Positions 1 through 23,851 of a stretch of DNA of 64,000 bases are shown in pieces (position 1 is the first letter of the stretch; each line of letters begins with the position of its first letter). The translations under genes and the position numbers were made by a program. The notes beneath the pieces were generated by a model that was not told the DNA's origin, made no database searches, and saw only the letters and a program-made list of their open reading frames with translations. This stretch comes from a bacterium (GTDB lineage: Bacteria > Patescibacteriota > Minisyncoccia > Phycocordibacterales > Phycocordibacteraceae): positions 256,001 through 320,000 of the forward strand of contig JBBCGK010000001.1 in the NCBI GenBank assembly GCA_037200965.1, in the 5' to 3' direction.

Positions 1-881
1 CCAGTGTTCATGACAAGGCCCGGAATCCCCCTGATCTCGGAAATGAGGTCCTGTTTCGCGCGCAGCGCCCGGCCGCCAAACGCTTCCCTTCCCTCTTTTG
101 CCTCCTCAAGCGCGGCGGCAAAACTTGCGGCAAGCGCCGGGCTTTCGGTCCCCGGCCGGAGCCCCCGCTCCTGCCCTCCGCCGCTCATGACCGCCGAGAG
201 CGGAAGCGTCCGGTGCGCGATAAGCGCGCCGATGCCGCGCATGCCGCCGACCTTCGACGCGTCAAGCGTCACGATATCCGCATTGAAGTGCGCACGGGAG
301 AATTTCTGCGTAAGCGGAGCCTGCGTCGCATCGACATGAAGCAGCGTACGGGTACCCTTGCACGCCTCGGCGACTTCCCGCGTATTCCAGACCGTTCCCG
401 TTTCGCCGCATACCGCGTCCATGGAAATAAGCGAGGCTTCTTGGGTAAGCATCGGTGCGAGCGCTTCGATCTCGATCCTGCCGTTCCTGACCGGAAGTTC
501 TTCGACACGAATCCATTCGTCCCGCAATATCTGCATGGTCCCGGCGATCGAGGCGTGGGACGACGGCAGGTACAGAAAACGGATACTTTCCGGCTTCCTT
601 CCGGAACGGATGAGCGAGCACGCATGCCCTACGATCGCAAGCGCGTTCGCCTCGGTCGCTCCGGAAGTGAATACCACGTCGTCCGCCTTCACTTCCATAA
701 GCCGGGCGATCTTCGTGCGAGCGGCTTCGAGTATGTCTTTCGCGGCCCGTCCTTCCGCGTGCGGCGAGGACGGATTGCCGTATGCCTTCCTGGCGCGCAT
801 ATACGCGCGCGCAGCCGCGTCCGAAACCGGCGCGGCTGCGGCCCAGTCGAGATACGCGCGCTTTTTGGAGAATAAGCCCAT
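1..881 (-). CDS. Cysteine desulfurase (NifS/IscS-like class V aminotransferase). The N-terminal 293 aa are present and the C-terminus runs off the window start. It is not in the ORF track.
   Basis: Manual translation of the minus strand from the ATG at 881 gives MGLFSKKRAYLDWAAAAPVSDAAARAYMRARKAYGNPSSPHAEGRAAKDILEAARTKIARLMEV...VVFTSGATEANALAIVG...LLHVDATQAPL...DIVTLDASKVGGMRGIGAL. The SSPH, SGATEAN and HVDA motifs and the PLP lysine context (SK) match the family. Confidence 0.7.
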   Translation of the reverse strand, partial: MGLFSKKRAYLDWAAAAPVSDAAARAYMRARKAYGNPSSPHAEGRAAKDILEAARTKIARLMEVKADDVVFTSGATEANALAIVGHACSLIRSGRKPESIRFLYLPSSHASIAGTMQILRDEWIRVEELPVRNGRIEIEALAPMLTQEASLISMDAVCGETGTVWNTREVAEACKGTRTLLHVDATQAPLTQKFSRAHFNADIVTLDASKVGGMRGIGALIAHRTLPLSAVMSGGGQERGLRPGTESPALAASFAAALEEAKEGREAFGGRALRAKQDLISEIRGIPGLVMNT

Positions 882-930
882 GCGTAGGTTGTAGCACGGA
901 GCTTCGCGCGATTGCAATCGGCCTCTTTTC

Positions 931-2424
931 GTGATGTACTCTAACCCTATGGCAAGCGCTCCCCGCCCCCCGATCGTCGCCGTAATGGGACATATCGACC
1001 ACGGCAAATCTTCCCTTCTGGACTACATCCGGAAATCGAATGTCGTTGCCGGCGAAGCGGGCGGCATTACCCAGCACGTCTCCGCGTACGAAGCGGTGCA
1101 TGAGCACGAGGGCAAACCCCGCGCGATCACCTTCCTCGATACGCCGGGACACGAGGCGTTCAAGGTGCTCCGCGCGCGCGGCGCGGCCGCGGCGGACGTC
1201 GCGATACTCGTCGTCGCCGCGGACGAAGGCGTGAAACCGCAGACGCTCGACGCGCTTGCGGCGATACGCGAGGCGCAGACGCCGTTCGTCGTGGCGTTCA
1301 CGAAAATAGACAAAAACGGCGCGAACGTGGAGACCGCGAAGCATTCGCTTCTCGAGCACGAGGTATATCTCGAGGGCTTCGGCGGCGAAGTGCCGTTCGC
1401 GGCGGTCTCCTCGAAAACCGGCGAGGGCGTGCCCGAACTCCTCGACCTCGTCCTTCTCACGGCCGATCTCGCGGGACTTTCCGCGGACGCTTTCCTTCCC
1501 GCAGAAGGTTTCGTACTCGAGTCTTCGCAAGACCCCAAGCGCGGCCTTTCCGCAACGCTCATCGTTAAGGACGGTACGCTCTCGACCGGACAGTTCGTCG
1601 TCGCGGGAACCGCCTTCGCTCCCGTCCGCTTCATCGAGAACTTCCTCGGGAAACGGATCGATACCGCGGGTCCCTCCCAGCCGATACGCGTTTCCGGATT
1701 CAATTCCCTTCCCCCGGCCGGAACGCCTTTCAAGAGCGTCCAGAGCAAGAAAGAAGCGGAACAGCTTGCCGCGAAAGGCGTCACGCCCGCCAAGGCACAG
1801 CTCGCGCGCACCGGCGCGAACTCCGCGGAACTCCCGCTTATCATCAAAGCCGACGTAACAGGCAGTATCGAGGCGATCAGGCACGAGCTTTCGAAAGTAA
1901 CGCATGAGCGGGCGAATATCGTGCTCCTCTTCGCGGATGTCGGGGCCGTCGGCGAAAGCGACGTGAAGAGCGCGATAGCTTCGAAAGGAACCGTCATCGC
2001 GTTCAACGTTCCGGTCGACGCGGGGGCGCGGGAACTCGCCCTTCGCACGGGCATAGCGATAGAGAGTTTTTCCATAATCTACGATCTTGGCATGCGCATC
2101 CAGGACCTTCTTACGACCCGCGCGCCGCGCGTGACGAAGGAAGAGGAGCGCGGCACGGCGAAAGTGCTCCGCACGTTCAGCTCTTCCTCGCACAAGCAGG
2201 TGCTTGGGGTGAAGCTCGAGAGCGGCGCCTTCGCGGTTGGCGGGCTTGTTAAAATGCTCCGCCGGGATATCGAGCTCGGGCGCGGAAAGATATCGAACCT
2301 CCAGCAGGCCAGGGCCGATGTGAAGGAAATCCGCACGGAGGGAGATTTCGGCATCGAGATCGATTCGAAGACGGAAGCGGCGCCGGGCGACACCATCGTC
2401 ACGTACGAGATGGTCGAATCATAG
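931..2424 (+). CDS. infB: Translation initiation factor IF-2, short form lacking the N-terminal domains
   Basis: G1 motif AVMGHIDHGKSSLLD, G3 motif DTPGH, G4 motif TKIDK, and the C-terminal IF2 domains. It is divergent from the upstream desulfurase gene. Confidence 0.9.
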   Translation: MMYSNPMASAPRPPIVAVMGHIDHGKSSLLDYIRKSNVVAGEAGGITQHVSAYEAVHEHEGKPRAITFLDTPGHEAFKVLRARGAAAADVAILVVAADEGVKPQTLDALAAIREAQTPFVVAFTKIDKNGANVETAKHSLLEHEVYLEGFGGEVPFAAVSSKTGEGVPELLDLVLLTADLAGLSADAFLPAEGFVLESSQDPKRGLSATLIVKDGTLSTGQFVVAGTAFAPVRFIENFLGKRIDTAGPSQPIRVSGFNSLPPAGTPFKSVQSKKEAEQLAAKGVTPAKAQLARTGANSAELPLIIKADVTGSIEAIRHELSKVTHERANIVLLFADVGAVGESDVKSAIASKGTVIAFNVPVDAGARELALRTGIAIESFSIIYDLGMRIQDLLTTRAPRVTKEEERGTAKVLRTFSSSSHKQVLGVKLESGAFAVGGLVKMLRRDIELGRGKISNLQQARADVKEIRTEGDFGIEIDSKTEAAPGDTIVTYEMVES

Positions 2425-2426
2425 CC

Positions 2427-2750
2427 ATGAGCTTCAAAGTCGACCGCACTGCTTCCGAACTCACGCACCTCGCGGGCGCCTTCATCGCGGAAAACGCGAA
2501 CCGCGACACGCTCATCACGCCCACGCGCGCCGAATTGGGCTCCGACCTTAAGAACGCGACGGTGCTCGTGACCGTCTATCCCTACGAAAAGACTCCGCAA
2601 GCGCTCGCATTCCTTAACCGCAATCTCCGGGAATTCCGCCAGTTTCTCAAGGACAAGGGACATCTGACCGTTCTGCCGAACGTTTCCTTCGTAGAGGACG
2701 AAGGCGAGAAGAACCGCCAGCGCTTGGACGAGCTTTTCCGCGGCACCTAG
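2427..2750 (+). CDS. rbfA: Ribosome-binding factor A
   Basis: A 107-aa protein immediately after infB, the canonical infB-rbfA linkage. The size and conserved character fit RbfA. Confidence 0.75.
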   Translation: MSFKVDRTASELTHLAGAFIAENANRDTLITPTRAELGSDLKNATVLVTVYPYEKTPQALAFLNRNLREFRQFLKDKGHLTVLPNVSFVEDEGEKNRQRLDELFRGT

Positions 2751-2784
2751 CTCAAGGCGCGCGGGCGCGCTAGTATGCAGAAAC

Positions 2785-2856
2785 GGCCCGGTGGTGAAGG
2801 GGTAACACGACGATCTGCAAAATCGTTATGCGCGGGTTCGAGTCCCGCCCGGGCCT
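2785..2856 (+). tRNA. tRNA-Cys (anticodon GCA)
   Basis: Cloverleaf folded by hand. Acceptor ggcccgg/ccgggcc, anticodon stem acgat/atcgt with loop ctGCAaa, T-arm cgcgggttcgagtcccgcg. No encoded CCA. Confidence 0.8.
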
Positions 2857-2869
2857 CAAGTCGTATCAT

Positions 2870-2958
2870 GCCGAGGTGGCGGAATGGTAGACGCACTTCG
2901 CTTAAAACGAAGAGAGGACCTAAAAACCCTCATGTGAGTTCGAGTCTCACCCTCGGCA
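2870..2958 (+). tRNA. tRNA-Leu (anticodon TAA), class II with a long variable arm
   Basis: Acceptor gccgagg/cctcggc, anticodon stem cttcg/cgaag with loop ctTAAaa, long variable arm, T-arm gtgagttcgagtctcac. Confidence 0.8.
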
Positions 2959-3002
2959 CAGAAATCAGAAACTCCCGCATGCGCGGGAGTTTCTGATTTC
3001 TG
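2959..3002. terminator. Perfect 20-bp-stem palindromic hairpin (loop atgc) filling the space between the convergent tRNA-Leu and tRNA-Lys. Likely a bidirectional terminator or processing element.
   Basis: The sequence cagaaatcagaaactcccgc-atgc-gcgggagtttctgatttctg is an exact reverse complement. It abuts both tRNA 3' ends. There is no U-tract. Confidence 0.6.
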
Positions 3003-3075
3003 TGCGCCTACCTGGGCTCGAACCAGGGACCGTCTCCTTAAGAGGGAGCTGCTCTACCAGCTGAGCTATAGGCGC
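3003..3075 (-). tRNA. tRNA-Lys (anticodon CTT)
   Basis: The reverse complement gives gcgccta..tagctcagctggtagagc..ctCTTaa..T-arm cctggttcgagcccagg..taggcgc+a. Confidence 0.75.
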
Positions 3076-3141
3076 GTCACCGAATCGTAGCAAACGGCGA
3101 TCGTTTTTCAAAGCGAAGTACGGTAGCATCAGCTGGTGCGC

Positions 3142-3223
3142 GCCGGGGTGGTGAAACTGGTAGACACACTAGCCTTAGGAGCTAGCCCTTCACAGGATGG
3201 AGGTTCGAGTCCTCTCCCCGGCA
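3142..3223 (+). tRNA. tRNA-Leu (anticodon TAG), class II
   Basis: Acceptor gccgggg/ccccggc, anticodon stem ctagc/gctag with loop ctTAGga, long variable arm, T-loop ttcgagt. Confidence 0.8.
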
Positions 3224-3308
3224 CAACAGCTCGTCCCGCGGCCGTTTTCACGGCATCTTGACTTTTCCTACGATTCCTGTATATTGGTACGCAGTACCAA
3301 ATTGAACC

Positions 3309-4337
3309 TTGTCAGGAAAGGGCAAACTGATGAAACATGACATCAGCTCTAGCGACAGCATTAGAACTGGACTGTGGGTATCACTTCTTGCGGGACTTGT
3401 TGCCGCACTGATCGTCTACTGGGCACTTGATGATTTTGGCCCCTATATCGCAGGTGCAGGAGCTTGTGCAGCCCTCGGCATGGTAGCTGGAACGCTCAAT
3501 AAGTCGGGCTATCTCGGCTATACCCCTCCCGGGGAAGTCGGCGCAGACACGATAAACGGTGAACTGACCGGCAGGATTCGCGGGCCAGGTTATCCGTGGG
3601 CAATTCCCGGTCTTGGCGGCCAAATCCCCCTGAACGTTCAGGAGCGTAAGATTTCACCGCGTATCTTTACCGAACTCGTCGGAAAAGTACCGGTAGAAGT
3701 TGAGCTTTTGAGTACAGGCCGGATCGTCGATGCACGGAAGCACTTCCAGGCGCAACAATCTGAAGATATCCTGCTGCCCGAGTTCATCGAAACGCAGGCG
3801 CGAGCCTTCATGGGCCCGTGGAAAGACGCCGGTGGCGTAATCCTGCAGAAGGATCTGGTTGCCGAATATCTCGGGCTCCCGGCAAAGGCAGATGATCGCG
3901 GCGAACATTCGAAGCTCGAGGCAAAACTCCTCGAGTGCACTGTCGTTACCGAAGAGGACGACACGCCCGATTTGCCAAAAAGCGCCGTCAGGACGCTTAT
4001 GGCGAACGCGGGCAAAGTGCGCGAACAAGCCGCGAAATGGGGCCTCGAAATCGGCGTGATGCAAACCAGGCATTTCGACCTTCCGCAAAGCCTGAAAGAC
4101 ATCGGCGCGCTCGCGCTTATCAACATCAAGCGCGGGGAGATGATCGAGGAACTCAAGAAGCACAAGGGTATCCCCGAGCAAGATATTCTCAACTCCGTCG
4201 ACATGCTGATGAAGCTGCCGATCACAAAATCGGTCTCGGACATCCAGATCCGCGATCTCGACGCAGTGGCGGCGCACTTCGGCAAAGCAATCGCCGAATT
4301 GCTCTTCCGCTACATCAAAAACACAGGAGGCAAATAA
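3309..4337 (+). CDS. SPFH/band-7 (stomatin/flotillin-like) membrane protein
   Basis: N-terminal TM helix, then G..R.PG....PG.G..IPLNVQER...VEV..STGRIVDA..HFQ and a later ..WGLEIGVMQTRHFDLP segment matching the SPFH beta-sheet and helix pattern. Confidence 0.55.
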   Translation: MSGKGKLMKHDISSSDSIRTGLWVSLLAGLVAALIVYWALDDFGPYIAGAGACAALGMVAGTLNKSGYLGYTPPGEVGADTINGELTGRIRGPGYPWAIPGLGGQIPLNVQERKISPRIFTELVGKVPVEVELLSTGRIVDARKHFQAQQSEDILLPEFIETQARAFMGPWKDAGGVILQKDLVAEYLGLPAKADDRGEHSKLEAKLLECTVVTEEDDTPDLPKSAVRTLMANAGKVREQAAKWGLEIGVMQTRHFDLPQSLKDIGALALINIKRGEMIEELKKHKGIPEQDILNSVDMLMKLPITKSVSDIQIRDLDAVAAHFGKAIAELLFRYIKNTGGK

Positions 4338-4819
4338 TGGCTACAGCCACCACAGCAACGACAACATCCGGAACTCAAGCGAGCGATGGACAAAATCGCG
4401 GACTCCCACCCAAAGAACTCTGGCCGCGCGTTCTGAAGTGGGGCGGCCTCGGAATCGCAGCGATCATACTGATCGCTGGAGCTAAAAGTCTTTATGCTGA
4501 TCATAAGACTCAGGAACAATCACGCCAAGCCGAAGCCGCCGTCCTTGTCTGCCCGCCCGCAAACGCAAGTTTGCAGCAATGCAGGATGCTCGTCGGAACG
4601 GTGAATAAGATCGACACGAGCGCATGCTCCACGGTCGAATTCCGGCCGATACCGAAGCCGGAATACGCCAAGGCGGAGTATCTTCCCGCCGGTCTCCGTG
4701 ACGTCCGGCAAAACTATCAGCGCTGGACGGGAACGGAAGATCTCCCGGCTCATATCGACGCCTGGCGGATCGAGCCCACTGCGGGCGAAATCCCCCAAGG
4801 CTACCAGTGCCTCAACTAG
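4337..4819 (+). CDS. Membrane-anchored hypothetical protein: poly-Thr/Ala N-terminus, one TM helix, Cys-containing ectodomain. Translationally coupled (TAATG) to the SPFH gene.
   Basis: The ATG overlaps the SPFH stop by 1 nt, with aggagg 8 nt upstream. A TM segment WGGLGIAAIILIAGA is present. A terminator hairpin follows at 4842-4885. Confidence 0.5.
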   Translation: MATATTATTTSGTQASDGQNRGLPPKELWPRVLKWGGLGIAAIILIAGAKSLYADHKTQEQSRQAEAAVLVCPPANASLQQCRMLVGTVNKIDTSACSTVEFRPIPKPEYAKAEYLPAGLRDVRQNYQRWTGTEDLPAHIDAWRIEPTAGEIPQGYQCLN

Positions 4820-4901
4820 CAGCACGTACCGCTGTCAACTTATACAACCCCCTCTCCTTTGCAGGAGCCCGGGGGTTGTTTCTTAATCCGCATCCCGCCC
4901 G

Positions 4902-5177
4902 CTAGGATGTAAACTTCGGTACCGACGGAATGCCGAACGTGCCCGTAATGACGCCCAATATGCCAAACACGCCGAAAATGATGACGAGGCCGACCAAGCC
5001 CCAGAGAATGGAACTCCTTCCCTCTTCCCGCGCGGTCTCGTCCCCGGCATTCGCAACGAACTTGAAGACGCCCCAGAGGAAGATGAGAAATGCCGCCGCA
5101 GCGATAAGCATGAGGAGCGGATTCACGATCTGCACCACGACGGTCTTGAGGAAATTATTCAATACGTCCATAGGCAT
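4902..5177 (-). CDS. Small two-TM protein with VirB2/TrbC-like topology (T4SS-pilin-like), paralog 1; no signal peptide
   Basis: Helix-loop-helix core FLIFLWGVFKFVANAGDETAREEGRSSILWGLVGLVIIFGV, shared with the five upstream paralogs. Confidence 0.55.
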   Translation of the reverse strand: MPMDVLNNFLKTVVVQIVNPLLMLIAAAAFLIFLWGVFKFVANAGDETAREEGRSSILWGLVGLVIIFGVFGILGVITGTFGIPSVPKFTS

Positions 5178-5236
5178 AAGAATAACACAAAGCCCCGGCC
5201 AGCGGCCGGGGCTTTGTGTTAAAACGCCGGGAGAAA

Positions 5237-5590
5237 CTAGAAGTCTGCCTGCGGAAGCGGAGGCGTCGCGTTATTGGTCGAGAAGGTACCTACGAGGATA
5301 TTCACGAGGCCCCAGATCGAGACCATAACGAAGAAGCCGATAAGGCCGTAGAGCATGAGTTTCTTGCCCTTTTCCTTCGCGTCTTCGTCGTTCGCCCCGA
5401 TGATGAAGACCTGGAAAGCGCCCCAGATGAAGACGATGAAGGCGACGGCAAAGAGCACCGGCACCAGGACGTTATTGATGATATTGATGACCGTGGTACC
5501 CACATCGGATACGCTTGAGATAGTGGCGGCACCGGCAAGGAGCGGCGTCAAAAGTGCGATTGCGGCAAACGGCGCGAGGTATTTCTTCAT
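5237..5590 (-). CDS. VirB2/TrbC-like pilin-like protein, paralog 2, with signal peptide
   Basis: Signal peptide MKKYLAPFAAIALLTPLLAGAA, then the two-hydrophobic-helix core VLFAVAFIVFIWGAFQVFIIGANDEDAKEKGKKLMLYGLIGFFVMVSIWGLVNIL. Confidence 0.6.
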   Translation of the reverse strand: MKKYLAPFAAIALLTPLLAGAATISSVSDVGTTVINIINNVLVPVLFAVAFIVFIWGAFQVFIIGANDEDAKEKGKKLMLYGLIGFFVMVSIWGLVNILVGTFSTNNATPPLPQADF

Positions 5591-5699
5591 AATGGTGATA
5601 TTCGTATAATGGCTCCCCGGCGTTGAGCGGAGTTCCCCTTATTCTAGCTTGCCTTCGCCCCAGGGCAAGCCGCGTCCCTGATTCGTGTGGATAAGAACC

Positions 5700-6122
5700 T
5701 TAAAGGGTCGGGTAGTCGGGCCGCGCGTATCCTCCAAGGCCGAGCGTATTGGAGAGGATATTGACCAGGCCCCACAGCGAGAACATCACCACGAAACCGA
5801 TCAGCCCCCAGAGGATGAACTGCCTTCCTTCCTTGCGCTTGTCCTCGTCCGCACCGCCCACGATGAAGTAGTTGAAGACGCCCCAGAGGAATACAAGGAA
5901 GGCGATGGTAAACAGGATGGGTACGAGAATATTGTTGATGACCACGAGCACAAGATCGCCGTAGTGGCCGAAGGCGCCCGCATTAACAACCGACACCGTC
6001 GGCCCCGGGCTTATCTGCGGAGTCCCGTCTCCCGTGACAGGATCGATCGCCGCAGCCGCATAGGAACAAAGCGGCGCCCCAAGAACCAGAAGCGCGATCA
6101 GGAAAGGAAGATATCGTTTCAT
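5700..6122 (-). CDS. VirB2/TrbC-like pilin-like protein, paralog 3, with signal peptide and a variable Gly/Pro/Thr-rich segment
   Basis: Signal peptide MKRYLPFLIALLVLGAPLCSYAAA; core FLVFLWGVFNYFIVGGADEDKRKEGRQFILWGLIGFVVMFSLWGLVNIL. Confidence 0.6.
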   Translation of the reverse strand: MKRYLPFLIALLVLGAPLCSYAAAAIDPVTGDGTPQISPGPTVSVVNAGAFGHYGDLVLVVINNILVPILFTIAFLVFLWGVFNYFIVGGADEDKRKEGRQFILWGLIGFVVMFSLWGLVNILSNTLGLGGYARPDYPTL

Positions 6123-6128
6123 ACGGGA

Positions 6129-6446
6129 TTAATAAGAAGTCGGATAAGCCGGATGGCGGTACCCGCCAAGATCGAACGTGTTAACGAGTATGTTGACCAG
6201 CCCCCATACCGAAAGCATGACGAAGAATCCGACGAGGCCGTACAGGATATACGTGCGGCCCGTCTCGCGTTTCGTTTCGTCGTCCGCGCCCAGTATGAAG
6301 TATTGGAAGACGCCCCAGATGAAGACGATGAAGGCGACGGCGAAAACGAGGGGAACGGCGACATTGTTGATGAGGCCGAGAATAGTACCGGCGATGCCCT
6401 GGAGGTTGCCGCAGTTTCCTACGCACAGCGAGAATGAGAATCCCAT
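6129..6446 (-). CDS. VirB2/TrbC-like pilin-like protein, paralog 4
   Basis: Core FAVAFIVFIWGVFQYFILGADDETKRETGRTYILYGLVGFFVMLSVWGLVNIL. Lies 6 nt downstream of paralog 3. Confidence 0.55.
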   Translation of the reverse strand: MGFSFSLCVGNCGNLQGIAGTILGLINNVAVPLVFAVAFIVFIWGVFQYFILGADDETKRETGRTYILYGLVGFFVMLSVWGLVNILVNTFDLGGYRHPAYPTSY

Positions 6447-6457
6447 ATGGTTTAGTA

Positions 6458-6703
6458 TTATAGCGCGATTATGCTAAGGCCGATGCGTATCAATCCCCAG
6501 ACCCCGAACATGACCACAAGCCCGATCAGCCCCCAGAGGATGAACTGCCTTCCTTCCTTGCGCTTGTCCTCGTCCGCGCCGCCCACGATGAAGTAGTTGA
6601 AGACGCCCCAGAGGAATGCGAATCCCGCAAGCGCAAAGACGACAGGAATGACAATCCCGCCTATGATGGCTACGATCGAATTGACGAGTTCGGCAAAGGT
6701 CAT
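6458..6703 (-). CDS. VirB2/TrbC-like pilin-like protein, paralog 5. Start chosen at the internal Met (MTFAELVNS...) because the N-terminal extension shown in the ORF track overlaps the upstream gene.
   Basis: Core FAFLWGVFNYFIVGGADEDKRKEGRQFILWGLIGLVVMFGVWGLI is nearly identical to paralog 3. The ATG lies 1 nt after the stop of the upstream gene. Confidence 0.5.
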   Translation of the reverse strand: MTFAELVNSIVAIIGGIVIPVVFALAGFAFLWGVFNYFIVGGADEDKRKEGRQFILWGLIGLVVMFGVWGLIRIGLSIIAL

Positions 6704-6704
6704 A

Positions 6705-7247
6705 TCAGGTGCCAAGCGCCTGTACCGTCGCCTGGATTCCGAGCGAGATCGCCTTGGCGCCAAGGAGAATGAGCGCTCCGACGACCGTCCACAGGAGCGC
6801 CTCGCGCGCCTCCTTTATTTTTTCTTCCGCTCCCTGCGCGGTCACGAATTTGAAACCTACGTAGACGAGCATCAAGACGATGACGATGCCGCCGATCTGT
6901 ATCACGAGGTCGAGGACGGCATTGAGGAAATCCGGAATCGTCGAAAAGCCGAGAGGATTCGTAAGGCCGCTTCCGCCTCCCCCGCCGCCTGGAACCGTTC
7001 CCGCCGGACGGCATACTCCCGCCACGCAGGTATCAGTGCCGGTGCAGGCAGGCTTGCAGGCTGAACCGCCGGGAACGGTACCGGCCGCTTGGCATTTGCC
7101 GTTGACGCATGTATCGGTACCGGTGCAAGCAGGAAGGCAGGCGGAGTCGGCGGCCTGCGCAGGAGCAGGTACGAGGATAAACACCATGAGAAACGCGACC
7201 GTGGCCGGAACAATAAAATACTTGCCTGTAGCGTTCATGATTTTCAT
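6705..7247 (-). CDS. Pilin-like paralog 6: signal peptide, two tandem Cys-rich repeats (ACxPACTGTDTCVxGxCxxAGTVPGG), a Gly-rich linker, then the VirB2-like two-TM C-terminal core
   Basis: Start at MKIMNATGKYF (ATGA overlap with the stop of the SBP gene). Repeats ADSACLPACTGTDTCVNGKCQAAGTVPGG and SACKPACTGTDTCVAGVCRPAGTVPGG. C-terminal FKFVTAQGAEEKIKEAREALLWTVVGALILLGA. Confidence 0.55.
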   Translation of the reverse strand: MKIMNATGKYFIVPATVAFLMVFILVPAPAQAADSACLPACTGTDTCVNGKCQAAGTVPGGSACKPACTGTDTCVAGVCRPAGTVPGGGGGGSGLTNPLGFSTIPDFLNAVLDLVIQIGGIVIVLMLVYVGFKFVTAQGAEEKIKEAREALLWTVVGALILLGAKAISLGIQATVQALGT

Positions 7248-19775: not shown

Positions 19776-20336
19776 ATGCATGCAATGCGAGTTACCGGAG
19801 TCGTACGAGAAGTTGTCATCTTCGTCCTCCTGGCCGTCGTCATCGTTCTTCCGATCCGCTTTTTCATCGCGCAGCCTTTCGTCGTACAGGGTGAATCGAT
19901 GCATCCGACCTTCGAGAACGGCGACTATCTCATTATCGACGAGCTTTCCTATGATTTCAGCGCTCCCAGGCGCGGCGATGTCGTCGTCTTCCGCTATCCC
20001 GGGGATACTTCCGTCTTTTATATAAAGCGCATCATAGGCCTCCCCGGAGAGACCGTGCGGATCACCAAAGGCGTCGTGAACATCCAGCGCGCGGACGGAA
20101 GCGACCTCGCGCTTGAGAGTGAGCCGTACATTTCCGCCGAGGATGCCACCTATACTCTCTCAACAAGCCTCGGGCAGGGCGAGTATTTCGTCATGGGCGA
20201 CAACCGGCCGAATAGCTCCGACTCCCGCGTCTGGGGCACGCTTCCCGAGAAGGACATCATGGGCCGCGTATTCCTCCGGCTTCTTCCGGCAAGCGCGGTC
20301 GGAGCCTTTCCCGGCGCGGCAAGCGTTCCGCAATAA
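19776..20336 (+). CDS. lepB: Signal peptidase I
   Basis: TM helix, then GESMHPTF (Ser box) ... GDNRPNSSDSRVWG (box E). Start chosen at MHAMRVTG; the upstream 97 aa shown in the track are low-complexity. Confidence 0.8.
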   Translation: MHAMRVTGVVREVVIFVLLAVVIVLPIRFFIAQPFVVQGESMHPTFENGDYLIIDELSYDFSAPRRGDVVVFRYPGDTSVFYIKRIIGLPGETVRITKGVVNIQRADGSDLALESEPYISAEDATYTLSTSLGQGEYFVMGDNRPNSSDSRVWGTLPEKDIMGRVFLRLLPASAVGAFPGAASVPQ

Positions 20337-21499
20337 TGTCCATGCCGACTTCTAAGGACTCGACTACCCTTAAGGCGGAAGACGTGCTTCGGAGGGCACA
20401 CGCCGTCGGCAACTACTACGGCTTCCTTCCGCTCGCCTCGCTCACCGCGATGAAGCGCGGCGGCAATACGAAGCTTCCGTTCCCCGATACGCTCCAGTTA
20501 AATTCGCTCGACGCGACCGCGCAGATCGTCGCAACGTTTTTAAAGCAAGTGCGCGACGGCGGACTTATTCCCTCAAGCACGCAACCGCTTTTCGTCTGGC
20601 ATACGAACGCGGCAGCCGGGCGTCCCGCCCCCAAGCAGCTTCTTATACAGTTCCACGCAATCGGCGCCGACCGGGCGATCGCCGACGCGGTACTTATCCG
20701 CGCGGTGCGCGCGCTCGCGGCGGATATCCATAAAGGCGAGCTTTTGCTTCGCATCAACAGCATGGGCGACCGCGAAACCCGGAACCGCTTCAGCCGGGAA
20801 CTCGGTGTCTTCTTCAGGAAGCGCGGCGCCGCGCTCCCGACGGACTGCGTTGACTGCGCGAAGCGCGACGTGTTCGAGGCGGCGGAGCTTCTGCTTGACA
20901 GCGAACACGAAGGCGATCTTCCGACGCCGACCGATCATCTCTCCGAAGCGAGCCGCAAGCGCTTCGAGGACCTCCTCGAATACCTCGAAGCGACCGAAAC
21001 GCCCTATGACCTCGCGCCGAACCTCCTTTCCCGCGGCGCCGCGTGGTCCGAGACGTGCTTTGAGGTGCGTGCGGGCGGGCATCCGGTCGCCTGGGGTTCG
21101 CGCTATACCGACCTCACCAGGCATTTCTTCAAGGGCCAGGTTCCGGCAGTCGGTGCGGTGCTTAAAGTGAACGTGCAGGGCGGCACGACGCTTCCGGCAG
21201 CGAAAGTATCCGGCCAGCCCCGTTTCGTTTTCGTACACATCGGCGAGGAAGCCAAGCGCGCGAGCATGCTCATCGCCGACACGCTTCGCCATACGCGCAT
21301 CCCGCTCATGCAGTCGATCGGCGTCGAGTCCCTCACCGAGCAGATGCGCCTCGCGGAGCTGCTCAATCCCCGCTATCTCCTCATCATGGGCCGCAAGGAA
21401 GCGCTCGACCACTCGGTTACGCTTCGGGAGCGTTCGACCCATACTGAAACCTCGATTCCCGTCGCATCCTTAGTCGAGCGGTTGCGGGCGGTGGCGTAA
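20336..21499 (+). CDS. Histidyl-tRNA synthetase homolog (class II core plus anticodon-binding domain) with degenerate motif 2 and GGRYD motif
   Basis: LIQFHAIGAD...LRINSMG...DCVDCAKRD...YDLAPNLLSRG...ETCFEV..AGG.PVAWGSRYTDL...C-terminal PRFVFVHIGEEAK...LLIMGRKE. These are collinear with HisRS/HisZ, but RYERPQ..RYRQFHQ is replaced by TNAAAGRPAPKQLLIQFHA. Confidence 0.55.
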   Translation: MSMPTSKDSTTLKAEDVLRRAHAVGNYYGFLPLASLTAMKRGGNTKLPFPDTLQLNSLDATAQIVATFLKQVRDGGLIPSSTQPLFVWHTNAAAGRPAPKQLLIQFHAIGADRAIADAVLIRAVRALAADIHKGELLLRINSMGDRETRNRFSRELGVFFRKRGAALPTDCVDCAKRDVFEAAELLLDSEHEGDLPTPTDHLSEASRKRFEDLLEYLEATETPYDLAPNLLSRGAAWSETCFEVRAGGHPVAWGSRYTDLTRHFFKGQVPAVGAVLKVNVQGGTTLPAAKVSGQPRFVFVHIGEEAKRASMLIADTLRHTRIPLMQSIGVESLTEQMRLAELLNPRYLLIMGRKEALDHSVTLRERSTHTETSIPVASLVERLRAVA

Positions 21500-21584
21500 G
21501 TGGGGGACAAAACTGGAATACCATGATATAATGGGAGTATTGCCGCCTCATATTCCTCTCATCTGAAAACGTTATACTATTCGC

Positions 21585-21761
21585 ATGAACATCGATTCCA
21601 TAACGAAAGAGCATGAAAATAAGTGGATCGCGCTGTCCCCCGATCATAGCGAGGTGCTCGAATCCGCCGCCGACCTCATGGACCTGAAAGCCAAAGTCGG
21701 GGAGCGGGATGTCGTATACCTGAAAGTGCCCGCTTCCGGGACGTACTTCGCCTTCGCATAA
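21585..21761 (+). CDS. Small DUF5678-like protein (58 aa); not in the ORF track
   Basis: MNIDSITKEHENKWIALSPDHSEVLESAADLMDLKAKVGERDVVYLKVPASGTYFAFA. The stop lies 1 nt before the start of the next gene. Confidence 0.45.
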   Translation: MNIDSITKEHENKWIALSPDHSEVLESAADLMDLKAKVGERDVVYLKVPASGTYFAFA

Positions 21762-21762
21762 T

Positions 21763-22173
21763 ATGACGAAATGGTATCCGTATACTCCCTTCTGGCAGGG
21801 AGATTATATGGTAAAGAAGCCGCTCATCGAAGTGGAGCTTTTTCATAACGGCCAGTCAATGAAACAGATGGCTCTGCTCGACTCCGGAGCGGATATCACC
21901 ACGGTCAATGCTGAAATAGCCGCATACCTCGGCATCGATTTGAAAGACTGTGATGAGAAAGTTATAGCGGGAGTTGTCGGACAGCCGACGCCCGCCTATC
22001 TAACCGAAATGGACATGAGCGTTTCCGGCTTCCCCGAAACCGTGCGGCTCCGCCTGCTTTTCGTTCCCGGTCTCAAGATGAATATCCTGCTCGGACAAGA
22101 GGGCTTCTTCGACGCGTTCCGCGTTTCGTTTGCGAAATACGAAGATGCGATCGAGCTGTCGCATGGGCACTAA
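21763..22173 (+). CDS. Retropepsin-like aspartic protease (clan AA)
   Basis: The ALLDSGADITTV motif (D-S-G-A) and LLGQEGFF (hydrophobic-G-x-x-F flap). An alternative start at 21808 has a gggaga SD. Confidence 0.6.
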   Translation: MTKWYPYTPFWQGDYMVKKPLIEVELFHNGQSMKQMALLDSGADITTVNAEIAAYLGIDLKDCDEKVIAGVVGQPTPAYLTEMDMSVSGFPETVRLRLLFVPGLKMNILLGQEGFFDAFRVSFAKYEDAIELSHGH

Positions 22174-22283
22174 GTCTTCCGCCTGCCAGATCTCCACGGA
22201 CGGCGGCGCAGCCTTTCGCGCTTTGTAGGGAAATGCTATAACCAGCATGGCCGCGAACCATCGCGGAGAAAGGAAGGTCTTTT

Positions 22284-22754
22284 ATGGACAGGCTCCGTTC
22301 ATTCTGTTTCTTCACGGGCATTGGCATCGCTGTGACGCTCGTCGATGCCGGAACATTCTATCTGCTCACCGACCGCTTCGGTTGGGAGAAATATCTCGCG
22401 GCGCTCGCGATTCTCTCCTTGTCCGGCGCGATCGTCGGCATGATTCGGGGCGTTCTCGACCGTGATGGCGCTTCGGGCTTGGTGGCAGGACTCCTTGCCG
22501 TCATCGCCCCGGCCTGGCTGGCCTGGATGCTTCTTGCTCCAAAGACCGACGCGTTACGGGAACCTCCGATTGGAGAACGCGAAGCGATCATCGCATCGTT
22601 CGCGTTCTACCGTTTTGCATTCTATGCGCTTGCCGTGCTCAGTAGCACCCCCTGGTCCATCGCGCTCCTGTTCTCCCTCGGCACGCTCGTCGCCTTCGTG
22701 CTCATCGCAAGCTTCATATTGAAGGTGGCGGCGCAGGAAACCGCGAAGCGATGA
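22284..22754 (+). CDS. Integral membrane protein, hypothetical (four TM)
   Basis: SD aaggaagg upstream; multiple hydrophobic helices. Confidence 0.45.
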   Translation: MDRLRSFCFFTGIGIAVTLVDAGTFYLLTDRFGWEKYLAALAILSLSGAIVGMIRGVLDRDGASGLVAGLLAVIAPAWLAWMLLAPKTDALREPPIGEREAIIASFAFYRFAFYALAVLSSTPWSIALLFSLGTLVAFVLIASFILKVAAQETAKR

Positions 22755-22828
22755 GTGGGATACGTACGATCGAAAACCGGCGCGTTCGGCGGCGGGTTCC
22801 CCTCGGAACCCGCCGTTATCTTTTTTTA

Positions 22829-23851
22829 GTGAGTTCAACAAGTAAAAGCACCACCTTCCATTAATACTGGAGGCATATGGCGCATATGAGCATCGAGGAA
22901 CGCGAGCTGATACAGAAAGGGCTGTGGGAGAAGAAATCGGTGCGAGAGATCGCCCGGGAGCTCAGACGTCCGCATTCGACCGTGAGCAAGGAGATCCGAC
23001 GGAATCTCCCGCCCGAGCGGCGGGTATATACGCCCCGTCTCGCCAACGAACGAGCGCTCGAGAAACGGAAGTCCCGGGGACGGCAATCGCGCCTCAAGAG
23101 TCCCGAGCTCGGGGAGTACGTGGTCGAACACCTGAAGCTCGGCTGGTCTCCCGAGCAGATATCCAGCACCGCCCCAGAGCGAATATCGCACGAAGCCATA
23201 TACCAGTATGTATACGCACAGATACATCGCAAGGGATATGGGCATCCAAAGCCCGGGAAGGAAGACCTGCGCCCATACCTGGCGCGGCGTCACAAGCGAC
23301 GGCAGAAGATGGGGCACCGCAAATCACAAAGAGTCCTGCGCCCAACGGGCCCGAGCATTGATGAACGCCCGCTCGTTGTCGAGAAACGCACACGCCTGGG
23401 CGACTGGGAGGGCGACAGTATCGAAGGCAAGAACCATGGGCCCGGCCTCAACTCCCTGGTCGATCGCGGGAGCGGACTCCTCCTCTTGTCGAAGCTCGAG
23501 GCCAAAGATGCGGACGCGACCTGCGCAGCGGTCGCCCGCAGGCTCGCGGGGATGTGCGCCCACACCCTCACCCTCGACAACGGGCCCGAGAACCGTCCAT
23601 GGCAGGAACTTGAGACGGCAACGGGAGCCCGGGTGTACTTCGCCCACCCGTATCACTCCTGGGAGCGCGGCTCAAACGAGAACACTAATGGCTTGGTACG
23701 TCGTTTCTTCCCGAAAGGTACCGACTTCAGCCTCGTCTCCGACGAGACTGTGGCGGCAGTGGAGTATGTTCTCAATACGAGGCCTCGGAAACGGCTCGGG
23801 TATCGGACACCATTAGAAGTCTGGGGTGGTGCTTTGAGAGGTTGAATTCAC
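22829..23851 (+). mobile_element. IS30-family insertion sequence, about 1.02 kb, with imperfect 27-bp terminal inverted repeats
   Basis: IRL gtgagttcaacaagtaaaagcaccacc (22829-22855) against the reverse complement of IRR gtgaattcaacctctcaaagcaccacc (23825-23851). The transposase stop lies inside IRR, as is typical of IS30. Confidence 0.7.
22877..23845 (+). CDS. IS30-family DDE transposase
   Basis: N-terminal HTH (SIEERELIQKGLWEKKSVREIARELRR) and the DDE region ...GDWEGDSI...LTLDNGPE...HPYHSWERGSNENTNGLVRRFFPKG. Confidence 0.85.
   Translation: MAHMSIEERELIQKGLWEKKSVREIARELRRPHSTVSKEIRRNLPPERRVYTPRLANERALEKRKSRGRQSRLKSPELGEYVVEHLKLGWSPEQISSTAPERISHEAIYQYVYAQIHRKGYGHPKPGKEDLRPYLARRHKRRQKMGHRKSQRVLRPTGPSIDERPLVVEKRTRLGDWEGDSIEGKNHGPGLNSLVDRGSGLLLLSKLEAKDADATCAAVARRLAGMCAHTLTLDNGPENRPWQELETATGARVYFAHPYHSWERGSNENTNGLVRRFFPKGTDFSLVSDETVAAVEYVLNTRPRKRLGYRTPLEVWGGALRG

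Follow-up and report, generated by a model that had tools for sequence, protein, structure and literature searches.

Why does a gene for a retropepsin-like aspartic protease in a bacterium begin a single nucleotide behind a gene of only 58 codons, and what might the two products do together? The question is raised by a 64,000-nucleotide stretch of a Patescibacteriota genome (positions 256,001 to 320,000 of contig JBBCGK010000001.1, assembly GCA_037200965.1; hereafter the window), in which a preliminary description had placed a 58-amino-acid (aa) open reading frame (ORF) at 21585-21761, with its stop 1 nt before a 136-aa ORF carrying the motif LLDSGAD. The sequence confirms these coordinates. 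We find that the two genes belong to a near-obligatory, mobile module, new here, that joins a DUF5678 protein to a retropepsin in both bacteria and archaea, and we tentatively propose that the small protein acts as an antitoxin-like inhibitor of its protease. The parts of the pair to which we refer are these:

21585..21761, forward strand: small ORF, with ATG at 21585 and TAA at 21759-21761; 58 aa; a divergent DUF5678 member
21726..21758, forward strand: C-terminal tail of the small protein, VPASGTYFAFA, in which a conserved VP hinge leads into a terminal peptide of hydrophobic/aromatic character
21759..21765, forward strand: junction TAA-T-ATG, comprising the stop of the small ORF, the single base T at 21762 and the protease start
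21763..22173, forward strand: ORF for an aspartic protease of 136 aa, retropepsin-like (clan AA) and single-domain; ATG at 21763
21808..21810, forward strand: internal ATG at which public gene calls begin the gene (121-aa version), judged here to give a truncation
21880..21894, forward strand: catalytic motif D40-S-G-A-D (residues 40-44), one per chain, invariant in alignments A1 and A5
22087..22110, forward strand: second signature LLGQEGFF (residues 109-116), a family-specific form of the retropepsin 'hhG-R-D/N' motif, preceding the C-terminal helix and strands

Two genuine genes in a conserved pair

The product of the 58-codon ORF (MNIDSITKEHENKWIALSPDHSEVLESAADLMDLKAKVGERDVVYLKVPASGTYFAFA) is annotated at NCBI as a hypothetical protein (P0017), though the ORF track behind the preliminary description lacked it, and the ORF that follows encodes the segment ALLDSGAD, with the codon for D40 at 21880-21882. 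An ORF this short might be a chance ORF or an unrelated neighbour of the protease gene, given that it has merely 58 codons in a genome of ~60% GC and that its product alone falls under the Pfam threshold, but we give this reading practically no weight. In a comparison with 72-74% identical homologues from another locus (L001), in which synonymous sites are saturated for both ORFs, the small ORF shows values of 0.142 at nonsynonymous sites (pN) and 0.947 at synonymous sites (pS), and the protease ORF a pN of 0.15 and a pS of 0.80. Homologues of the small ORF reach E 2.7e-30, the AlphaFold2 (AF2) model of its product has a mean predicted local distance difference test (pLDDT) score of 84, and a counterpart stands next to the protease gene at 91 of 91 loci in two domains of life. 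Homologues, pN/pS and adjacency together refute a chance ORF. Because pN lies far below pS and homologues of the two co-recur across both domains, we conclude that both are genuine genes and that purifying selection acts on each.

The preliminary description also spoke of a recurring pairing with a small partner, and here the evidence is extensive. When one genome per GTDB species was scanned, 168 protease relatives emerged, the best 80 of which were fetched; going by record titles, 32 of these loci are from the candidate phyla radiation (CPR)/Patescibacteria, 29 from DPANN archaea and 10 from other bacteria, and 9 carry other archaeal labels. When an iterated hidden Markov model of the small protein was run against all six-frame ORFs of the 80 loci and of loci fetched earlier, a homologue of the small ORF was found directly upstream and on the same strand for 90 of 91 protease ORFs; at the 91st locus it also lies upstream, of a frameshifted protease. 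No small-protein match occurred away from a protease in the six-frame ORFs of the searched loci. The reverse check, on long contigs, found a protease behind the DUF5678 gene in three cases out of three, one of these proteases having an in-frame stop.

The spacing of the two genes is similarly constrained. All but four of 88 non-redundant pairs, hence 84, have junctions of -20 to +14 nt, most commonly a 4-nt ATGA overlap (23 pairs) or a 1-nt gap like that in the window (20 pairs), and the four outliers have an interrupted protease N terminus. The reading-frame relation across the junction varies among pairs (-4, +1, -11 and others). The pairing of DUF5678 and retropepsin is thus near-obligatory, and both the gene order and the abutment of stop and start are conserved over CPR bacteria as well as DPANN archaea. 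Because no Shine-Dalgarno-like sequence lies inside the junction at 21759..21765, we infer, from the gene geometry only, that translation of the two genes is coupled: ribosomes ending the small ORF would re-initiate at the ATG of the protease, and both proteins would then be made in a fixed ratio.

A retropepsin-fold protease with a conserved N terminus

The 136-aa protein had been called retropepsin-like, an identity that profiles and structure uphold. It scores 29.4 bits against PF13650 (Asp_protease_2; cutoff 24.3) and 28.5 bits against PF13975 (gag-asp_proteas; cutoff 28.2), while its score of 17.5 bits for RVP is under the cutoff of 20.7, and a profile of its family run against the PDB finds the protease of Rous sarcoma virus (RSV; E 5.9e-4). 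The best Foldseek match of its AF2 model (mean pLDDT 93.4) is the Rickettsia protease APRc (5c9f_A; E 3.4e-5, TMq 0.65), and the further top matches, all with a probability of 1.00, are the proteases of human immunodeficiency virus (HIV)-1/2, feline immunodeficiency virus (FIV), human T-lymphotropic virus 1 (HTLV-1) and RSV, together with Ddi1/2. Profiles, motifs and modelled fold all identify the protein as a retropepsin of clan AA.

Residues L110, G111, Q112, E113, G114, F115 and F116 of the second signature are invariant in protease alignment A1, and among the proteases of the 88 pairs, D[ST]GA is present in 84 and G[QR]xGFF in 81. With its motif and predicted fold intact, the protease is apparently catalytically active. 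Family A2 retropepsins with a single motif need to form a homodimer for activity, and the one DSGA motif per chain therefore means that this protease, too, must homodimerise. To the common fold the model adds a beta hairpin at the C terminus and, at the N terminus, a beta extension specific to the family. The protein has no N-terminal hydrophobic segment, and we predict that it is cytoplasmic and consists of a single domain. Its subfamily comprises 4,897 clusters at 50% identity (E <= 1e-3), at least 1,544 of them at E <= 1e-10, so that the earlier description of single-domain retropepsins as rare in bacteria goes too far for this subfamily; nearly all of its members stand alone, at ~135-145 aa.

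Where the protease begins matters for these comparisons. The 121-aa calls in public records (P0001 at NCBI and gene 1724-2089 of L094 in Logan) start from 21808 and drop 15 conserved, structured N-terminal residues. The start at 21763 is better supported, because an N-terminal motif, 'M-x-[YF]-x-Y' (M1, Y7), is nearly invariant in 103 protease-family representatives, because most representatives align from profile position 1, and because AF2 places three beta strands in residues 3-19 with confidence (block-mean pLDDT 95 and 92 over residues 1-20).

A fold and motifs that match those of retroviral proteases, behind an upstream protein in an order that mimics gag-pro, might suggest that the pair is a relic of a retroelement or virus, that is, a degenerate Gag-Pro-like remnant whose small protein is a fragment of capsid or nucleocapsid and which has no cellular function. 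We hold this to be very improbable. Neither reverse transcriptase nor retroviral-type integrase nor capsid is found in the top 25 of 109 flanking Pfam families, and the IMG/VR, phage and plasmid collections contain no relatives; furthermore, the varying junction frame implies that no programmed frameshift product is made, and both genes are under purifying selection. A gag-pro-like fusion of the two products by programmed frameshifting or read-through was rejected as well, as the junction frame varies and no fusions occur among the 120 DUF5678 matches listed or 150 protease representatives.

The partner as a divergent DUF5678 protein with a class-specific tail

The small protein had been described as resembling DUF5678, which holds through its relatives and does not hold for the window protein taken alone. 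Alone, it scores 15.1 bits against PF18929 (E 0.021, profile positions 4-44 of 49), below the cutoff of 23.2. The profile is matched, however, by seven of nine close relatives (best E 6.5e-6) and by 44 of 54 wider ones (best E 5.5e-16), and a profile built from the relatives retrieved 426 proteins; among the matches listed, all 120 carry PF18929, at 63-82 aa. Because its clear homologues match PF18929 although it is itself sub-threshold, we assign the protein to DUF5678, by homology, as a divergent member. It shares with the family the signature 'G-x-W-[VI]-A ... [VI]-[VIL]-a-h-G ... helix ... [RK]-[VI]-P ... tail'; the CPR clade to which the window member belongs has, like that member, diverged from typical DUF5678 proteins, with another tail and without an N-terminal extension. 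Both points by which the preliminary description had proposed to be judged, conservation of the pair in other genomes and similarity to DUF5678, were thus examined, and conservation and similarity were both found. DUF5678 has no assigned function, and our literature search found no paper that treats it functionally. Some of its members are named misleadingly: DPANN proteins of 64-68 aa (P0047, P0131) are entered in NCBI/nr as 'succinyl-CoA synthetase subunit alpha', evidently a propagated mis-annotation.

The AF2 model (H3-9, E14-17, E24-28, H31-38, E44-47) predicts an alpha-beta-beta-alpha-beta core followed by a flexible C-terminal tail. Residues 51-58 have a block-mean pLDDT of 63 and DSSP assigns no secondary structure beyond residue 47, and V48, P49 and Y54 are invariant in small-protein alignment A2. 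Over the 88 pairs the tail is conserved within classes, as '...ETMIF-stop' in archaea and as '[YF][YF]xP...' in CPR, and archaeal-class proteins terminate exactly at ...ETMIF, ...MIL or ...MIY, with an extension in only 2 of ~45. On these alignments, the extreme C terminus is the most class-specifically conserved feature of the small protein. A profile comparison by hhalign with a UPF0150/HicB-like protein encoded beside a HicA gene (probability 89%, E 2.3e-6) gives a weak hint of a distant link between DUF5678 and the HicB/UPF0150 antitoxin fold, to which structure searches add no backing.

A conserved, flexible terminal peptide is also what a dedicated substrate might be expected to carry. 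The co-expressed retropepsin would then cleave this peptide from the small protein, activating the core or releasing the peptide, and the pair would be a maturation system. The CPR tails lend themselves to such a reading, since [YF][YF]xP... extends to either side of a potential scissile bond; retroviral cleavage sites of the Tyr/Phe-Pro type resemble these aromatic-hydrophobic-Pro tails. The flexibility of the tail in the AF2 model and the obligate co-occurrence of the genes would likewise suit an enzyme and its single substrate. The archaeal class, however, ends at ...ETMIF, ...MIL or ...MIY without prime-side residues, which leaves nothing to cleave at the conserved position, and no conserved nearby gene could use a matured product. 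We therefore regard a dedicated substrate as unlikely.

An accessory, horizontally spread unit

How the pair came to lie where it does can be read from the surrounding genes:

20336-21499, forward strand: 'HisRS-like' protein, 387 aa, with HGTP_anticodon as its only Pfam match (E 6.4e-7)
21500..22828, no strand assigned: accessory segment, consisting of the pair, a 156-aa membrane-protein gene and a hairpin, absent from orthologous loci
21504..21532, forward strand: promoter-like site, 52 nt 5' of the small ORF, with GGGACA and TATAAT separated by 17 nt and a TG upstream of TATAAT
22284-22754, forward strand: predicted membrane protein, 156 aa, without a Pfam match
22788-22817: strong terminator-like hairpin, 13 pairs and a T-run
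22829..23851, forward strand: IS30-like insertion sequence, outside the module but within the same lineage-specific insertion

Forty loci with orthologues of the upstream HisRS-like gene, at 46-79% identity, were fetched. Thirty-two of these have the gene for S21 directly behind the HisRS-like gene, with SPase ahead of the latter and YbeY usually present as well, and none of those 32 has the pair, the membrane-protein gene or the IS30-like element. GC content is 0.49-0.52 over the pair and 0.60-0.66 in the upstream flank. Since the HisRS-like gene and S21 are adjacent in the 32 orthologous loci, the segment from ~21500 to 23851 is a lineage-specific, low-GC insertion between them. The window arrangement recurs in two further samples.

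Elsewhere the pair keeps other company. Copies that are 74-78% identical occupy differing contexts, one of 74% identity sitting between the gene gap and a CsgG gene, unlike the context in the window. There is no conserved third gene, as the 150 flanking genes represent 109 Pfam families of which none occurs more than four times; the flanking genes include ribosomal and translation genes and a few for PIN, ParE and Fic. Several genomes hold more than one copy. A Paceibacterota contig (L033) has two diverged whole pairs in tandem, at 2015-2657 and 3702-4366, with a third copy (L030) in the same metagenome-assembled genome (MAG), and two further copies (L025 and L027) come from another single MAG. 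Others have decayed: in an Altiarchaeota copy (L091, 3001-3659) an in-frame stop interrupts the protease and DSGAE replaces DSGAD, and in a Thaumarchaeota copy (L073, 3601-4417) the protease is frameshifted, the DUF5678 gene being intact in both. Variable contexts, multiple and decayed copies, absence from orthologous loci, the GC dip and the spread over two domains together lead us to conclude that the pair is an autonomous, accessory two-gene unit that has spread horizontally.

These observations also bear on whether the small protein is instead an obligate subunit, activator or adaptor, which the protease would need to fold, dimerise or select its substrates, in a housekeeping or stress role in reduced genomes. 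Strict one-to-one co-occurrence and tight coupling are equally typical of heteromeric enzymes; the N-terminal beta extension and C-terminal hairpin of the modelled protease could dock a strand of a partner, and the enrichment in CPR and DPANN could mirror a lifestyle-specific function. Patchy distribution, multi-copy genomes, pseudogenes, variable sites and absence from 32 orthologous loci point, on the other hand, to an accessory or selfish element, and an obligate subunit accordingly seems to us an improbable explanation.

Some loci deserve separate mention. Pairs of 39% identity in L003 and L004 (~200-7200) lie in a conserved block with Replic_Relax, DUF6876, a DnaG-type zinc-ribbon primase and HNH, joined in L003 by MazE and PIN; this block has the appearance of an integrated element or a small mobile replicon. 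Some copies of the pair adjoin bona fide toxin-antitoxin (TA) genes, namely MazE/PIN in L003 and HicA in L092. Pairs of the CPR or DPANN type also occur at several loci (L022, L028, L034, L074; L049, L067, L069, L076, L089) from MAGs labelled 'uncultured Gammaproteobacteria' or 'uncultured Methanosarcinales', one of these loci being a single 950-kb contig. These labels may be errors of binning or taxonomy and not indicate true hosts.

Relation to known systems

In its genetics the pair most resembles type II TA systems such as VapBC and HicAB. Like them, it is an operon of two genes that begins with the small partner, its frames overlapping or abutting, and it has varied chromosomal contexts, patchy horizontal spread and several or decayed copies per genome. 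In the AF2 model its partner has a flexible C-terminal tail, as do antitoxins whose tails cover the active sites of toxins. It differs in that the putative effector is an aspartic protease rather than a nuclease, kinase or translation inhibitor, in that no DNA-binding domain is detected in the partner, and in that toxicity, neutralisation and lability of the antitoxin are here only putative. The 2009 and 2013 surveys by Makarova hold nothing on retropepsins in TA systems, and our literature search found no paper on a DUF5678-retropepsin pairing, on retropepsin toxins or on retropepsins in connection with CPR or DPANN.

The closest catalogued relatives are themselves only candidates. PDC-M52 and PDC-M08, catalogued by PADLOC as candidates for phage defence, are two-gene cassettes of the form A>>B from RefSeq genomes, defined by their embedding in BREX, DISARM or type I restriction-modification (R-M) loci (Payne et al., bioRxiv 10.1101/2024.01.29.577857, supplementary file 8). 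Their B protein is retropepsin-like, has ~120-140 aa and is likewise encoded by the second gene. The window protease matches PDC-M52B at E 7.6e-7 over profile positions 21-135 of 139, and of 103 protease-family representatives, 74 match PDC-M52 (best E 4.5e-10) and 54 match PDC-M08 (best E 1.4e-10). The embedding in BREX, DISARM or R-M loci is not seen for the pair. We conclude that the pair belongs to neither PDC-M52 nor PDC-M08, and represents a related architecture with another partner, its protease being a distant relative of B.

Among proteases, those of HIV-1, RSV and HTLV-1 (MEROPS family A2) share with the pair the single D-S/T-G-A, the flap region, the 'hhG-R/Q-x' motif, the fold and the need for a homodimer, and in both cases the protein ahead of the protease has a hydrophobic end that is similar to the P side of a cleavage site. 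Unlike them, the pair protease is a free-standing cellular gene product that is not excised from a polyprotein, carries the extra N-terminal beta extension and C-terminal hairpin and has no retroelement context. Rickettsia APRc (PDB 5c9f) is similarly a prokaryotic stand-alone retropepsin domain, although identity is only 16%. APRc, moreover, belongs as its soluble domain to a protein that is embedded in the membrane, processes itself and is not known to have a dedicated small partner gene, and in this it differs from the pair protease. For the control of an aspartic protease by a small segment that blocks its cleft until removed, IA3 with proteinase A in yeast and the pepsinogen propeptide offer precedents. 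The analogy is a limited one, as they act on pepsin-type enzymes with two domains, are not known to be encoded together with these in a coupled operon and have no homology to DUF5678.

A proposed model: a protease held by a co-encoded inhibitor

We favour, though tentatively and with somewhat less than even confidence, the reading that the pair is an autonomous mobile two-gene operon in which a homodimeric retropepsin is accompanied by its cognate DUF5678 partner, most likely a stoichiometric, antitoxin-like inhibitor. We favour the inhibitor role because the genomic behaviour of the pair is like that of TA and defence systems, because the partner is encoded first and because its C terminus is class-specific. 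The small protein would be the cognate binding partner of the protease and form a complex with it. Specificity would come from the core of the small protein, and the substrate cleft would be occupied by its terminal peptide, in the manner of a pseudo-substrate or product mimic. The aromatic and hydrophobic tails, both the archaeal ...ETMIF-COOH and the CPR type, resemble the non-prime side, or the full site, of a retropepsin substrate. If the partner were lost, degraded or displaced, whether through loss of the locus, stress or infection, the freed protease might, more speculatively, cleave cellular or invader proteins, and the outcome might be addiction or defence of the kind associated with type II TA or abortive-infection modules.

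Several observations weigh against this model. That the small protein binds the protease is itself something that we infer. Most type II antitoxins carry a DNA-binding domain, and none is detectable in the small protein, the Pfam models for helix-turn-helix, ribbon-helix-helix and AbrB domains giving no match for 54 small partners at E <= 0.01, and a search for operator palindromes near the promoter-like site at 21504..21532 yielded only 6-nt matches, which are not meaningful. The window protein ends in ...TYFAFA, in which mimicry of a substrate is less obvious than in the archaeal ...ETMIF. None of the 54 DUF5678 partners matches the PDC 'A' models at E <= 0.1. Plasmid and phage collections, searched by tblastn with three family members, and IMG/VR contain no relatives of the pair, so that its mobility, as deduced from genomic distribution, is not tied to known vectors. 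To our knowledge, there is also no experimentally established precedent for a toxin that is an aspartic protease.

A different use of the tail, as a decoy for the dimer interface that mimics the N-terminal strand of the protease, was tried and rejected: in a sliding-window BLOSUM comparison the N terminus of the protease was the best match to the tail in 8 of 83 pairs, and controls with reversed tails or internal segments gave 6-7 of 83.

A further extension of the inhibitor model is bolder, and we put it forward as a doubtful possibility. The pair could represent a previously undescribed class of TA or abortive-infection system, with a retropepsin as effector and the C terminus of the partner plugging its cleft, that is exchanged between domains among CPR and DPANN episymbionts, and it could perhaps belong to the free-living stock behind the protease-plus-upstream-protein arrangements of retroelements.

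The module gives a testable functional context both to DUF5678 and to a large prokaryotic family of retropepsins. It is concentrated in CPR and DPANN, organisms without many known defence systems, and because it crosses the boundary between bacteria and archaea it can serve as a marker of gene flow between these episymbionts. Should the inhibitor model prove true, aspartic proteases would join the effectors of toxin and defence systems, and the partner would provide a natural protein scaffold for the inhibition of retropepsins. At a practical level, public gene calls shorten the protease by 15 residues and some DUF5678 proteins are mislabelled.

Other features of the locus

The site at 21504..21532 is the sole sigma-70-like match in 21300-22900, with one found and 1.1 expected by shuffling; as the match count does not exceed this expectation, it is its position that recommends it, and we call it promoter-like. 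The gene for the 156-aa membrane protein is not beside other copies of the pair, and may be co-transcribed with the pair in the window. Downstream, the IS30-like element has terminal inverted repeats of 27 nt (22829-22855 and 23825-23851) that are 81% complementary, and encodes a transposase of 322 aa at 22877-23845 (HTH_38, E 5.5e-15).

On the other side of the pair, no class II catalytic core was detected in the HisRS-like protein by Pfam at E <= 1e-3. The synteny of SPase, the HisRS-like gene, S21 and YbeY is kept in ~40 related metagenomic contigs. In nine orthologous loci (L102, L107, L118-L120, L125, L128, L130 and L131), 400-770 nt separate the HisRS-like gene from S21, compared with <100 nt, and the site may be a recurrent insertion hotspot.

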